Assembly: GCF_013167455.1 (NCBI RefSeq)
Contig: NZ_CP038328.1
DNA: 64,000 nucleotides
From: Escherichia coli O157:H7
Lineage (GTDB): Bacteria > Pseudomonadota > Gammaproteobacteria > Enterobacterales > Enterobacteriaceae
Strand: one strand, 5' to 3'
Shown: positions 53,201 to 59,200 of the stretch, in pieces
How positions within the stretch are numbered: the stretch's first letter is position 1
How the letters are laid out: the number at the start of each line of letters is the position of its first letter
Made by a program: the position numbers

Positions 53201-56200
53201 TGGCATCTCATAAGAGTCAGTATCTGGCGCAACACTAAAACTGACATAAGGCTCTTCGTTATCGTTTTCTCCTGCTTCGCAAATGGGGAAAATTGGCTCT
53301 TGCCCGACATCATATTCATATAATTCGTTACAGGTTAGTGATTGAATATCATCAATTTTGACAGAAGATTCTTCGTTAAGCTCGTATTCGTTTCTGTATT
53401 TAATGCAACCAATGTGTACCTTCTCATTATGAATGCCATAGCTTACGGCATCACGAAATGTCTGTGATCGGCTCAAAGCATCAAGTACAGTGTTGCCGAT
53501 CATATCGACTGTATGCTGATCGATAAGCCTGCTACGGCTGTCATGGACGGCGCGTATTACACTTTCGTATACGTTGCTTAAATCTGCTGCGGAAAGTGGT
53601 ATTCGCTTACCTATATCCAAAACGTAATCCGCATAGGCATTTTCAGCACGATTAGGAGCAATGGGAGCAGAGTATCCTGCCGGGGCGGAAAAGTTGAAGT
53701 TGGACTGTAATGAGGGAATTTTCATGTTTATATCTAATACCCTGCAAATCATTTATTACAACAAAATAAACTATATCAAATTCATTTACCATGAACTGCA
53801 TGTATACTGACTTGTGTTCATGATTATATTAGGGTGGTTAAACTCAATAAAGTCACAAAAATGATTATAATTATGTAATGGTGTAAAATTAAAATATTTC
53901 TTAACTCCTTTCCCCAAACCATCATAATATGGATGAGCATCTACTTTACTATGCATAAAAGAAAGTCCCTCAAGTAGAGCAGGATGATTACTACGGTTAA
54001 CAATTATTGCACTATTTTCAATATTTACACTATCATTACGACGATCCACATGCATTGAAATTCCATCAGGAGCATATATTGTACCAAGCTTACCTGTAAG
54101 TATCATATCCATATCAAGATAGATACACCCCTCCCCGAATGAAATACCGTGATTCTTTGTATTATATGTGCACCTGAATATCTCTCCTGCTTTTAATAAG
54201 GCTAAATTTCTGAAGAAATCAAACCATGCATGATTTCTTTTCTTTGCATACATAGAAATCAAAGAATCCTGCGCCTTTGAAATTTCCCTCAGCTCTTTCT
54301 CTAACAGATTCAACAAGTATTCATCTCTTTTGTCTTCAGTTCGTAACCTTTGTTCACATATAATATCATGATAAATATCTGATAGTTTTCTGTCATACAT
54401 ACTGAAGTCAACATCTTCCCGATAGATTATCATTACATTTTCAAAATCTCGTTCCAATTTTGAAAAAGCAGTCTTTTGGTTGACTGAAAAATCGCCATCA
54501 ACAAAAATACCTATCATACGATCACTCTCTATCCTTGCCGCATTTGTGACATTATCTAAATAGGGATGCTGCTTAGTATTAACTATTGGAACCTCATCTT
54601 TCTTATATCGTTCAGGATTAGGTTCAAACCACTGAAAAAGAATAGGCGTTTTTTCATCAATGACCTTTAACTCATATTCCTTTCCTGCAAAAGAAACCGT
54701 TTGACAGGGTGAACTCTGCACTATATTTACTGAGTTATGGAAAGTTGTCCTTATCGGTGAAAGCATTCGTCGTCCTGTTTATCCATATTTTCTTCACAAC
54801 TAACTCTTTAATCTATTAATTATATTGGCATACTCAACCACAAAACCTCCAGCAGTTTTGCCATCTTTGCTTTCCTAACAAACATCCACCGGACATGACA
54901 ACAAAAACCGGAGCCGGACTCCGGTTTTGTGAAGCTGTCGGGTTACTTCATCCCGCCAATATTTTCCCACGTCCCGTCAGCACGCAGGATTTGCAGCGGT
55001 CTTACCACACACTGTATCTGCTTTTTATCTGCATCCAGTATCACCACCTGTGTGATTACCCTGTCCTGCTCCGGAATAATGCCATTCTCATCTGACTCCA
55101 GAATGTCTGCCGGTCCCAGTCGCAATTGTGCTGTAAGTGACCGTCCGTTTTCACAGTCATCATGCTTTCCGCAACCGCACAGACTCTGCATAAGCTTTCT
55201 CAAAATATTCATGTCATTCTCCAGTTCTGCCTGTATCACTGCCCACTTCATCCAGTCCCTTAACATCCTGCCATGGCCCGTCACCAAACCTGACCTGCAA
55301 ATGCTGAAACATCCCCTGAACCTGTGTGGCATCTTTGGGGTCAAGAAAGGTCAGTCCGGTGATGAGCGTACCATCTGTACCCGGGAACCAGCCATAGCTG
55401 TTTGTCTCAATAATTCTCATCGGCCCCAGACGGAACCGTATTTGTGTCTCCCCCGGGTCGCCCTTCGCCCCCTGAGGTCCGGTAGCCCCCACCGGGCCAG
55501 CCGCACCTGTTTCCCCTTTCGGTCCCTGCGGTCCTGCCGGACCTGTTGCCCCGGTATCTCCCTTTGGCCCCTGTGGACCTGTACTTCCTGTCAGACCGGT
55601 CTCTCCCCGCTCTCCCCTGTCGCCTTTCGGCCCCTGCGGACCTGCCGGACCTGTATCTCCTCCCGGTCCCCGTTCACCGGTTGCCCCTGCCGGACCGGTG
55701 TCTCCACGCTCTCCTTTATCTCCCTTCGGCCCCTGAGGACCCGCGGGACCCGGTTCCCCCTTTGGTCCGGGAGGCCCCACCACGGTGGGAATTCTGTTTA
55801 CGGCGTCTTCCGCCGCTATTCTGCTTTGTTCCGCTGACTGTGCGCTTTCTGCTGATTCCCGGGCTTTTTCTGTTGCGGTCGTTGCATCCCTGGCTGCATT
55901 ACCGGCTGCACTTTCTGCCGTCTTTTTTGACAACTCGGCATCTGTTGCACTTTGTAATGACTCACTGGCTTTTTGAGCGGCCTCAGAGGCTGAGGACGAG
56001 GACGCTTCCTCTGACTTCTTTGCAGAGGCTGCACTTTCTGCCGCCTGCCGGGCTGACTCCGATGCATCCTCTGCTGAAGTATCAGCATTTGCGGCGCTCG
56101 CTTCCGCCTTACTGGCTGATATGCCGGCATTCCTCGCGGACGTCTCTGCTTCTCCGGCATTCTTCTTCGCCTCCTCTGCGTGACGCGCTGCTTCTTCCAC

Positions 56201-59200
56201 CATCTGTTCAAAACGACGCAGTGCCTCCGGACGGGCATCATCCTCCGTCATGGCACCGAGAAAATCATTCAGCGTACCCGGTTGAGAATCTTCATACACG
56301 GAGATGGTCCCGGCATGTGATGGCGGGAATCCCTCCACCAACAGAGTGACGCTGTACTGACCATACTCGACGTCCATGCTGTAACGCCCTGCCTCATCCG
56401 GATTTTCAGAGGCCACCGTGTTCACCACCACCGTGGTGCTGTTACGTCTGGCTTTCAGTTGAATGGTGCAGTTCTGTATTGGTTTTCCCGCACCATCTTT
56501 CAGCACGCCTGATATTTGTACTGCTGCCATACCCACTCCACAAAAAAGCCCGCCTGAACCGGCGGGCTGTCATAACGCTGTGTTACTAATCAAAATTTAT
56601 AACCGACACCCACGATGAAACCGTCAGTGCGCCAGTCACCGCTGCCGGAGCCTTCATAAGCGACATCAACGGCCACTGATTCGGTCGGGTTAAACTGCAC
56701 GCCAGCCCCCCACGCCAGAGATGTGTTGCTGTAGCGAGCGTCATCACTTCCGGTCAGCACGTCGTGCGTTTTCCTCTTGTTGTCAGTTACGCGGAAATAA
56801 TCCCCGGAAAAAGTCGACACACGGCTGTAAGCCACACCCGCCATCGCATACGCACTGAACCATTCATTCACACGCACAGACGGCCCTGCCATCACGCTGA
56901 ACCAGCGGTTACGCACGTAATCCTCATGCCAGCGGGTATCGCTGTAATGCGTTTTTTGCTCATCTTCGGCGTTGGCATAACTGAAGGACGTAATCAGCCC
57001 CAGTGTGTCCGTAAACTCATAACGGTATTTCACGTTAATCCCGTTCAGATCATCGCTGCCGGGAGCGTCCGTACTGGCATGAAGATATCCTGCGCTCAGC
57101 GTGGACTGATGCTCAGACGCCCATGCAGGCACACCGGATACGGCCAGACAAATGGCTGCGGACAAAATTGCTGCACAAACTTTACGCATAATTACCTCCC
57201 GATTTTCTGCAATAAAAAAGGCGCCATTTCTGGCGCCCGTTATTAGGGTTATAAATATTTCAACGGATACTGATGCCGGAAGCCGCTTTTTTGGTCACAA
57301 TCACCGTACAGTCGGTGATATTACCTGCCCGCTGATTGCCTTTATGGAAAACCTTAAACTCCAGAGTGACGCTTCCCCTGCCACTCGGCATATCAATAAC
57401 CGCACTGTAGCTACCGGGAATGGCCCCTTTAGTTTCTCTGGATGCGATTAATACACCGTTTTTGCGAACTTCAAAACCATAACCCGTGTATCTTGTACCT
57501 CCCGGGTTATTACCACTTCCCGGATCGCTATACGCTATTCCGTTAAAGATAATGGGCGGAATAATGATTTGACGGTCAAAGTTATGATCATCGCTGATGG
57601 TGACTGTAACCGTCCCGTTTGGTGTTTCCGTGTTACCCCACGTACCAGCCTGTTTCGGAAATGATTTGGATACAGCTTTAACGAAGTCACCTCTGACCTG
57701 AGTCGCCTCCAGCATGCCCTTAATCGTACAGTTTTCATTTACCGTGACGTTGTTGAGCGTCCCGGAGTTCGCATTCACACTGCCACTGATATCCGCATTT
57801 TTAGCGGTCAGCTTTCCGTCTGATGTCAGGGAAAATACCGGTGGATTTCCACCGCTGGTAATGGTGGGGGCCGTCAGGCGCTTCAGGAACACGTCGTTCA
57901 TGAATATCTGGTTGCCCTGCGCCACAAACATCGGCGTTTCATTCCCGTTTGCCGGGTCAATAAACGCGATACGATTGGCGGCAACCAGAAACTGGCTCAG
58001 CTTGCCTTCCTCCGTGTCCTCCATGCTGAGGCCAATACCCGCGACATAATGTTTGCCGTCTTTGGTCTGCTCAATTTTGACGCCCCACATGGCATTCCAT
58101 TTATCGTTAGCGTCCTTCCACTCTTTCGAAAACTCATCCAGTCTGCTGGCGTTATCCTCCGTCAGATCGACTTTTTCCAGCAGCTCCTTGCCGAGATGAG
58201 ATTCGGTTATCTTGCCTTTGAAAAAATCCAGATAACCTTCCGCATCATCGCTCGCCCGACCGACGGCCTCCACGAATGCCGATTTGCCAACGGTGTTCAC
58301 ACTGCGGATATAAAAGTAATAATCATGGCCCGGTTTGATATTGATACTGGCGGCTATCCAGTACAGCGCCGTACCAAGATAACGCGCGCTGGTTTCAACC
58401 TGCCTGATATCCGCAATCCGCGTTTCCGAGAACCAGAACTCAAACTGTACCGTCGGATCATAAACCGCAAGATGCGGCGTGGCGGTTATCTGAAAATAGC
58501 CCGGTGTCAGCTCAATCTGTGACGGCGCTGCCGGTGCGGCAATCCGGAACGATACCGACGCCGGATCGCCCTGCTGTCCCCACGCATTTACCGCCCGGAC
58601 TGTCAGCCTGTAGTTCCCCAGCGCCAGCTGCGTGAAGCGGTATGTGGTTTCCGTCGTCCGGGCCGTGCTGACCAGCCGCTCACTGCCGTCATCCGCTGCC
58701 ACGGTCAGGCGAAGCAGGAAGCTCACACCCTTCACCACCTTCGGCGTGTCCCATCGCGCCAGCACCTGATATTCCCCGCTGTCTGCGGAGACTTCGGCGG
58801 TCAGGTGCTGCACCGCTGGCGGCGTGACACCATTCACCGTGCTGCTCTGGTCACCGTCAAAGTGCGCCCCGTTATCCACGATGCCCTCTTTCTCCGGCAC
58901 ATGCTGCACGGCAGTGATGGCATACGTGCCGTCGTCGTTCTCACGGATACTCACGCAGCGGAACAGGCGCTGGCGCAGCGTCGGCAGCTTCAGCCCCCAC
59001 ACGCTGTATTCAGCAACACCGTCAGGAACCCGGCTCACTTTTACCTTCACGCCGTCGGTGACGGACTGAACCTCCACGCTGACCGGATTGCCACTTCCGT
59101 CAACCAGGCTTATCAGCGTGGTGCCGGAGGATGGCAGCGTGATTTCACGGTCGAGCGTCAGCGTCCGGGTCTGGCTGTTCACCGCCAGCACACGCCCACC

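Follow-up and report, generated by a model that had tools for sequence, protein, structure and literature searches.

A collagen-like side tail fibre and a free-standing paralogue of its tip domain in a lambdoid prophage of Escherichia coli O157:H7

Here we describe a two-gene unit within a 64,000-nucleotide stretch of an Escherichia coli O157:H7 genome (contig NZ_CP038328.1; hereafter the window, meaning the whole stretch that was analysed), where it forms the distal end of the late operon of a CP-933K/Sp3-type lambdoid prophage. The first gene is a homologue of the lambda side tail fibre gene stf and encodes a collagen-like fibre which, as read from its sequence, has the EPclA architecture (PfN-PCoil-Col-PfC) of Ghosh et al. 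2012. The second is an open reading frame (ORF) of 89 amino acids (aa) whose product is, by its domain matches, a paralogue of the fibre's own tip domain. Both the fibre and the small gene are already in the literature (Ghosh et al. 2012; Mondal et al. 2016, Sci Rep 6:39036) and have been named by the Prokaryotic Genome Annotation Pipeline (PGAP) and in PHROG 576. What the present analysis adds is evidence for the small ORF as a constrained and translated gene that is conserved across genera, and not a passive remnant. Reading the unit as a whole, we consider it probable that an EPclA fibre is here accompanied by a separately translated paralogue of its knob domain, which acts as an accessory at the knob. 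The features on which this reading is built are as follows.

55214..56536, minus strand: stf homologue, EPclA-type collagen-like side tail fibre (ORF list, Pfam, PHROG and PGAP coding sequence)
56129..56524, minus strand: PfN, N-terminal collar/attachment domain of the fibre, aa 5-136 (PF08400, E 4.3e-68, profile positions 2-133 of 134)
55778..56128, minus strand: PCoil, Ala/Ser/Glu-rich segment of 117 aa, aa 137-253 (sequence reading; coiled coil by homology to Ghosh et al. 2012)
55445..55777, minus strand: Col, 37 uninterrupted Gly-X-Y triplets, aa 254-364 (regex count; PF01391, E 1.8e-17)
55250..55441, minus strand: PfC-A, C-terminal globular domain of the fibre, 64 aa, aa 366-429 (PF06820, E 2.9e-33, profile positions 1-64 of 64)
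55219..55222, minus strand: GGAG, Shine-Dalgarno sequence of the small ORF, 6 nucleotides (nt) before its ATG and inside the last stf codons
54943..55212, minus strand: small ORF, 89-aa companion gene, free-standing PfC paralogue (PfC-B; PF06820, PHROG 576)
54903..54928, minus strand: intrinsic terminator closing the stf/small-ORF unit, hairpin CCGGAG/CTCCGG with A- and T-tracts (folding)

The fibre and its companion ORF

The stf product matches PHROG 366 'tail fiber protein' (E 9e-141), and its Pfam matches comprise PF08400, PF01391 and PF06820 with nothing else of note. The initial annotation of this DNA, made from the sequence alone, had described a lambda-like N-terminus, and this is borne out both by PF08400 and by the match of residues 5-97 to the solved collar domain gpStfN of Ur-lambda Stf (PDB 9E7M/9MGH; E 1.7e-50). 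Moreover, the PfN region has ~90% nucleotide identity to K-12 stfR. The Ala/Ser/Glu-rich coiled segment noted at that time likewise stands, with 117 residues read between PfN and Col and a coiled coil measured on a homologue. The collagen array was undercounted at about 30 Gly-X-Y triplets, of which there are 37. It is followed by PfC-A, an 11-aa tail and then the stf TGA at 55214-55216. This end of the protein had been called a short unrelated C-terminal domain; it is indeed unrelated to the C-terminus of lambda Stf, but it belongs to a named family (PF06820) and is related to the small ORF. The fibre has the 440 aa first given for it when read from a GTG at 56536, whereas 438 aa from the ATG at 56530 is the likely product: a GGAG precedes this ATG by 5 nt, and RefSeq PGAP uses the same start in E. 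coli O157:H7 strain ECP19-598, a genome with 99.9% identity to the window over 54880-56600.

Much of what can be said of the fibre comes from work on its homologues. Ghosh et al. 2012 list CP-933K and Sp3 copies of 437 aa, with a PCoil of 116 aa and a collagen region of 111 aa. Recombinant EPclA (ECs2717), expressed alone, was a dumbbell-shaped trimer in which Col formed a true collagen triple helix, as judged from its circular dichroism spectrum, with melting at 42 C (Ghosh et al. 2012). In the same study the 116-aa PCoil was a trimeric coiled coil, and PfC alone was trimeric and re-nucleated the triple helix. The window fibre shares with the EPclA of CP-933K/Sp3 the domain order PfN, PCoil, Col, PfC, the PCoil of ~116-117 aa, the Col of 111 aa (37 triplets) and the total of ~437-440 aa, as well as the prophage type and the neighbourhood by bioA/ybhB with nleB2, nleC, nleH1 and nleD. 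Nothing substantial differs: the window copy has one additional residue near its N-terminus (MAAVQISG), and its PfC knob differs at the level of alleles. Given more than 90% identity among copies, the window fibre is predicted to be a trimer with a collagen triple helix. Triplet counts of 26, 27, 30, 36 and 37 were found among related loci when repeat-number variation was checked, as the initial annotation had proposed, together with a two-collagen EPclB form, and this variability agrees with the tables of Ghosh et al. 2012.

That the fibre is shorter than lambda Stf, as first remarked, reflects this known EPclA architecture and not truncation. Lambda Stf (774 aa), which is found with Tfa, has a homologous N-terminal collar and the same place after J and lom, and is a trimeric side fibre that speeds adsorption. 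In contrast, the window fibre lacks the Phage_fiber_2 repeats (no PF03406 match), the gp37-like distal shaft and the lambda receptor-binding domain; its C-terminal 190 aa are instead a collagen shaft with a PfC tip, and the gene that follows it is a PfC paralogue rather than the Tfa chaperone.

The junction between stf and the small ORF reads CTGGAGAATGACATG, with the TGA at 55216-55214, a C at 55213 and the ATG at 55212-55210. An 89-aa ORF is therefore present at the stf stop, as initially annotated, but the overlap that was claimed for it is not: the ORF lies in the +1 frame relative to stf and abuts it with a 1-nt gap (TGA-C-ATG), and the two overlap only in a mechanical, TTG-extended 133-aa version of the small ORF. 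Residues 28-89 (54946-55131) match PF06820 with an E-value of 5.1e-36, and the PHROG 576 profile matches the protein end to end (1-89 of 89; E 2e-60). PfC-A and PfC-B are 35% identical (22/62; E 2e-12). The first 27 residues form a variable N-terminal helix/linker, and in a multiple alignment the homology of the small ORF ('...TAQLRLGP') begins exactly at the collagen end, with 26 unrelated residues replacing the shaft.

The proposal that this ORF encodes a detached distal fibre domain or a chaperone thus fares differently in its two halves. The domain homology (35% to PfC-A, with both in PF06820) upholds the first, whereas an essential chaperone is unsupported, since recombinant EPclA trimerises alone and ORF68, the homologue in phage Sp5, is among the non-essential late genes (Mondal et al. 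2016). Searches of Pfam, NCBIfam and PHROG with the small ORF gave no chaperone (Tfa-family) match, and PF06820 was the sole match in Pfam. The tail fibre assembly proteins (lambda Tfa, Mu U, P2 G and T4 gp38) are likewise encoded by a small gene directly 3′ of the fibre gene, and some of them stay on the fibre tip. However, the small ORF has no sequence relationship to them and is homologous to the fibre's own tip instead; according to the literature, neither EPclA trimerisation nor the propagation of Sp5 depends on it. The Gifsy-1 Stf paper was also searched for a chaperone or a companion gene, and neither was found mentioned there.

An AlphaFold2 model of the small ORF, built on a 12-sequence PfC alignment (pLDDT, the predicted local distance difference test score, 75.7), places a helix at residues 3-12 and a six-strand beta domain at residues 30-85. 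Foldseek comparison with viral models (BFVD) returned mostly tail fibre proteins, the best with E-values of 5e-3 to 0.1 and a template modelling (TM) score of ~0.5. We regard the model and these matches as leads consistent with a fibre-tip-type domain, and nothing more. Sequence searches of the PDB with the small ORF and with the PfC profile gave no significant match. The phage Mu tail fibre S (PDB 8JU3) was a weak match and is a lead alone: hhalign of the PfC profile against it aligned just a 7-residue C-terminal motif (E 0.35, not significant), and there is no invertible segment or invertase at the window locus.

The strong terminator that had been placed after the 89-aa ORF is well supported. 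The segment 54903-54928 folds at -21.3 kcal/mol (z = -4.0), none of 200 shuffles was as stable, and the hairpin is conserved among the 81 loci described below. A simple terminator scanner missed it, probably because the A/T-extended stem uses up the T-tract.

Conservation, selection and translation of the small ORF

Conservation was assessed on 80 loci from viral contigs together with the window (81 in total), a sample in which intact copies are favoured, the loci having been picked by full-length tblastn. The length of 270 nt, the ATG and an intact stop are found in 81/81 loci, and the junction GGAGAATGAC is kept in 80/81. Conservation of the reading frame in related prophages, on which the initial annotation had made its view of the ORF depend, is accordingly complete among these loci and extends to a Salmonella prophage at 51% protein identity. 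One of the 54 nucleotide alleles carries an internal stop, and truncated and chimeric versions of the small ORF are present in protein databases.

The variable sites of the 54 alleles are distributed 17:9:30 by codon position. Pairwise Nei-Gojobori estimates over 45-50 alleles (dS ~0.16) gave a ratio of nonsynonymous to synonymous substitution (dN/dS) of 0.05 for residues 28-89 and of 0.20 for residues 1-27. For PfC-A, calculated in the same manner on the same loci, dN/dS was 0.20 and the variable residues were clustered. Comparison of the two domains (0.05 for PfC-B, 0.20 for PfC-A) therefore indicates that the free copy is under stronger purifying selection than the copy on the fibre.

Evidence for translation comes from a 2026 preprint on phage phi24B that reports virion proteomics. 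The fibre of this phage, gp61, is of the EPclB form, and the preprint describes six lateral fibres, each with a shaft resembling collagen and a small globule at the C-terminus. Two peptides in the supplementary table, VITQVVILDADKK and ADGTWENIGGMK (probability at least 0.9996, 3 spectra each), are exact substrings of the window small ORF and are absent from the window fibre. The table maps both to 'gp59_start', to a six-frame ORF at 39891-40295 and to hypothetical 'Fusion_6159_FS1/FS2' entries, with the authors' label 'Spike or just gp59?'. In the higher-count part of the table that was assessed, the small protein has ~6 spectra and the fibre 2267, which places the small protein at trace level in virions.

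Of 5426 complete E. coli genomes, 697 carry the small ORF, with a median copy number of 11, and at an identity of at least 90% it is also present in 296 phage records. The family is nonetheless tiny, with 57 matches among 1.84 billion cluster representatives, all from E. coli, E. albertii and Citrobacter rodentium, to which a profile search added Salmonella enterica. Sp5 ORF68, phi24B gp59 and the 933W-type copies (PHROG 576) are 89 aa long, 91-99% identical to the window small ORF, positioned 1 nt after the fibre stop and followed by the same terminator. Theirs follows the 645-aa EPclB fibre of short-tailed Shiga toxin (Stx) phages, whereas that of the window follows the EPclA of a long-tailed lambdoid prophage.

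A small ORF directly 3′ of a PfC-ending fibre gene is the arrangement in the window, in 74 of the 81 loci (those with a readable upstream gene) and in the Salmonella prophage (locus L082; AAGWHB020000044.1, 2888-12240). In the latter the gene order is J, a 100-aa gene, a GDSL lipase, a 468-aa Stf and a 79-aa PfC ORF. This Stf comprises PfN, Phage_fiber_2 and PfC, with no collagen. The 79-aa ORF, 51% identical to the window small ORF, has its own AGGAGG at the corresponding position and overlaps stf by 23 nt in the +1 frame, and a different hairpin with a T-tract stands as terminator in the same place after it. That frame, start signal and position are all kept at this level of identity, beside a fibre whose shaft differs, is good evidence that the protein is functional and belongs with the PfC knob rather than with collagen.

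Three observations on these genomes may be recorded alongside. Matches to the free PfC gene came from E. coli, E. albertii, C. rodentium and S. enterica alone, the species whose lambdoid prophages carry type III effectors, and this spread may just be the host range of one prophage lineage. In the Salmonella prophage the GDSL-family lipase/esterase gene (452 aa) between J and stf occupies the place of lom in E. coli. Lastly, ~4 kb downstream of its small ORF the Salmonella prophage has a SopA-like effector gene, and a SopA-family gene directly follows the small ORF at two E. coli loci (L084 and L085).

Possible roles of the small protein

We propose the following arrangement. The lambda-like N-terminal domain would dock the fibre on the tail as a collar, and the coiled coil together with the 37-triplet collagen triple helix would form the shaft. 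The 64-aa PfC would make up the distal knob and, as the trimerisation module, would nucleate the collagen helix. The small gene would be translated separately, with its translation probably coupled to stf through the GGAG and the TGA-C-ATG junction, and in its product a short helix and linker would stand in the place of collagen. The small protein could then be an accessory at the distal knob, either a non-essential assembly helper or a minor tip-associated subunit, and would be dispensable in laboratory infections. We favour such an accessory protein because the idea of a recombination reservoir fits the data poorly and a fusion with the fibre is unlikely, as set out below.

Several points count against this proposal. 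An AlphaFold2 model of the linker-fused assembly 3x(Col-PfC-A) + 3x(small ORF) on a paired alignment reached a mean pLDDT of 35.7 and a predicted TM score (pTM) of 0.22, giving no structural support for an interaction. The low dN/dS could in principle also arise if selection acts solely after recombination into stf, and the pairwise values are drawn from recombining paralogues and are hence non-independent. Moreover, the proteomic signal is tiny and comes from the higher-count part of the supplementary table of a preprint, and could reflect carry-over from the lysate.

The best of the alternatives, although we think it unlikely, is that the small ORF matters mainly as DNA, namely as a spare PfC cassette for the 3′ end of stf or for other prophages in the cell. 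Mondal et al. 2016, who found no frameshift signal, suggested that ORF68 may be 'an intragenomic reservoir sequence' for fibre variation, and GenBank KU977419 names the gene atfT, 'alternate tail fiber tip'. The two PfC copies do lie in direct orientation 1 nt apart, and the genomes that carry the gene hold a median of 11 near-identical copies. Furthermore, one locus (L085) consists of stf, a 92-aa chimera of the small-ORF N-terminus with the PfC-A C-terminus, and a normal 89-aa ORF; this is the product expected from unequal recombination between PfC-A and PfC-B, and recombination thus does occur. One database protein (P0063) even joins collagen triplets directly to PfC-B. However, P0063 lies at the contig edge of a draft assembly, and no full-length fibre ending in PfC-B was found. 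PfC-B is nearly invariant and offers no diversity to draw on, PfC-A being the variable copy, and at 35% protein identity the two copies are a poor substrate for homologous recombination. A silent cassette would also need no conserved ATG, Shine-Dalgarno sequence or N-terminal extension, all of which the small ORF has, and its product is detected as peptides.

It is also conceivable, though doubtful, that the free PfC protein is a selected low-copy component of the virion that joins or caps the knob of some fibres as a mixed or stacked trimer. Were this the case, a minority of fibres would bear a second, invariant tip, providing a conserved fallback receptor specificity without DNA rearrangement and leaving PfC-A free to diversify. 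A receptor role for the PfC knob has itself been questioned in the phi24B preprint.

More doubtful still is a function away from the fibre, whereby a free PfC trimer would act on the host or its receptors, for instance by masking receptor on debris or vesicles, or would be a moron expressed in the lysogen. Such a role would suit a protein that is strongly sub-stoichiometric in virion preparations and non-essential for morphogenesis, and whose gene sits at the boundary with the moron/effector cargo and tracks, in its distribution, the effector-carrying prophages of attaching-effacing pathogens and Salmonella. Against this, the protein lacks a signal peptide, and a search of 54700-56800 gave no promoter-like site. 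At every locus that shows its upstream neighbour, the gene is tightly coupled to stf, and it falls within the late unit bounded by the terminator. It also occurs strictly together with PfC-ending fibres, whether the phage is long-tailed or short-tailed and in Salmonella too, which speaks for a role linked to the fibre.

A programmed +1 frameshift or stop-bypass would yield a stf/small-ORF fusion and hence a second PfC at the tip of a minority of fibres. In its favour, E. coli and Salmonella both have the small ORF in the +1 frame of stf, and a GGAG stands shortly before the stop, whose context is UGA-C. Rare recoding would also suit the trace abundance of the protein, and the phi24B authors included the fusion entries and the label mentioned above. 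We nevertheless regard recoding as very improbable. The sequence GAA-UGA-C offers tRNA-Glu no +1 re-pairing, and the GGAG abuts the P-site codon. The frameshift site of prfB has a 3-nt spacer between its Shine-Dalgarno-like element and the P-site codon. The geometry of the junction is unconserved, with a 1-nt gap in E. coli and a 23-nt overlap in Salmonella, and the frame of the small ORF is open upstream of its ATG for 46 codons in the former and 5 in the latter. Finally, there is no junction peptide among the higher-count peptides of the phi24B table, and Mondal et al. 2016 report no frameshift-prone sequence.

That the gene is a functionless leftover of duplication or module exchange, carried between stf and the terminator, is scarcely credible: the gene is non-essential, many truncated or chimeric versions are in databases, at least one copy is interrupted by an insertion sequence (H70) and one allele has an internal stop, but the selection analysis disfavours this origin (dN/dS 0.05 over 45-50 alleles at dS ~0.16), frame, start codon and Shine-Dalgarno sequence are conserved in Salmonella at 51% protein identity, and the phi24B peptides point to translation.

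Collagen-like fibres sit on the prophages by which genes for Shiga toxin and type III effectors pass from one E. coli strain to another, and their tips thus help decide which strains acquire those genes. The small protein, conserved, strongly constrained, translated and present in ~11 copies per enterohaemorrhagic E. coli genome, would on elucidation of its function add modestly to the biology of Stx phages without changing annotation.

Prophage setting, module boundary and spurious frames

The genes and signals flanking the unit are listed here.

57260-60673, minus strand: J (ORF list)
56590-57189, minus strand: lom (ORF list)
56547..56568, minus strand: intrinsic terminator of lom (terminator scan: 8-bp stem with 7 GC pairs, then TTTTTTGT)
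53786-54766, minus strand: NleB-like ORF, 326 aa, intact (ORF list)
52733-53752, minus strand: NleC-like ORF, 339 aa, intact (ORF list)

Across loci, nucleotide diversity is 0.01-0.06 over the 3′ half of the small ORF and reaches 0.3-0.7 no more than 30-60 nt past its stop, and among 58 distinct alleles of the region similarity stops ~30-60 nt from the terminator. This jump indicates that the small ORF and its terminator are the last conserved block of the phage structural region. The cargo beyond varies by prophage and here comprises exchangeable type III effectors (nleB2 and nleC).

In ECP19-598, PGAP gives the order gpJ, an Ail/Lom outer membrane protein and then two tail fibre genes, with stf named 'prophage tail fiber N-terminal domain-containing protein' and the small ORF 'phage tail fiber C-terminal domain-containing protein'. 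After the small ORF come nleB2, nleC, a tail-fibre-assembly pseudogene fragment, nleH1-1 and nleD, and then ybhB/bioA. The nleB2 of ECP19-598 is marked as a pseudogene containing an internal stop, whereas the NleB-like ORF of the window is open. The pseudogene fragment, ~2.7 kb downstream of the fibre unit, is annotated by PGAP as a 'tail fiber assembly protein' lacking its N-terminus and lies between nleC and nleH1-1 (3196-3351 of locus L001, ~52075-52230 of the window). Possibly it is what is left of an ancestral tfa, in which case the effector genes would have entered between tfa and the fibre unit. A further PGAP entry, a partial 'hypothetical protein' pseudogene (window 54834-54941; L001 5955-6062), starts 1 nt after the small-ORF stop and crosses the terminator hairpin, and is probably an annotation artefact.

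Upstream, the T-tract of the strong lom terminator leads straight into the stf ribosome-binding site (window 56530-56546; ...GGCGGGCTTTTTTGTGGAGTGGGTATG). Because this terminator lies just before stf, the fibre gene and the small ORF may need read-through by late transcription, and lom may be expressible alone.

On the opposite strand, two long ORFs face the unit.

55546..56349, plus strand: spurious antisense ORF, 267 aa, opposite PCoil and Col (dN/dS 1.55 in its own frame)
54929..55837, plus strand: spurious antisense ORF, 302 aa, opposite the small ORF, PfC-A and Col (dN/dS 1.81 where it overlaps the test region)

The initial annotation had listed both and advised that they be left unannotated, with which our results agree. 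Within an indel-free stretch of 720 nt the stf frame has a dN/dS of 0.20, against 1.55 and 1.81 for the antisense frames, and neither ORF has a Pfam match or a PGAP annotation in the 99.9% identical genome. Their persistence was considered as a sign of coding, as they are open in 40/40 full-length homologues, and was rejected on account of dN/dS above 1; the frames stay open because of a codon composition rich in GGN, CCN and GCN. A 141-aa ORF on the same strand as stf (window 55816-56241, minus strand), in an alternative frame of PCoil, is very rich in Arg, Gln and Pro, has no Pfam match and is probably a composition artefact. A lipoprotein or secretion signal was also considered in the small protein, where MNILRKLMQSLCGCGK holds an L-x-G-C lipobox-like motif, and was rejected by inspection because the motif follows too short a hydrophobic stretch and Salmonella (HCLSGGDK) has lost the Cys.

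Chimeric forms of the small ORF are found among database proteins (P0063, P0065, P0084, P0115, P0125 and P0029) and at loci L084 and L085, with breakpoints that cluster at small-ORF residues 34-45, around ADILESDENGI. As partners they have collagen triplets, the J C-terminus, Lom, the C-terminus of an NleG-family protein, a CII-like protein and PfC-A. The tandem at L085 is genuine, being inside a 37-kb contig, and L084, at the edge of its contig, is possibly an artefact of assembly. From the two loci looked at, the vicinity of ADILESDENGI was considered as a possible site-specific recombination site.

Lastly, two more distant proteins were considered. P0147 (1858 aa) was taken up as a distant PfC relative and rejected on reading its sequence, the similarity being a repeat-driven chance match. 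P0148 (565 aa, from a metagenome/genome collection) has four tandem PfC-like units (...VVVLxADxxxxxGxxGILxVRxADGTWxEIPA...) followed by a collagen array, indicating that outside enterobacterial prophages the PfC-type domain is also found repeated within a protein, on the N-terminal side of collagen.

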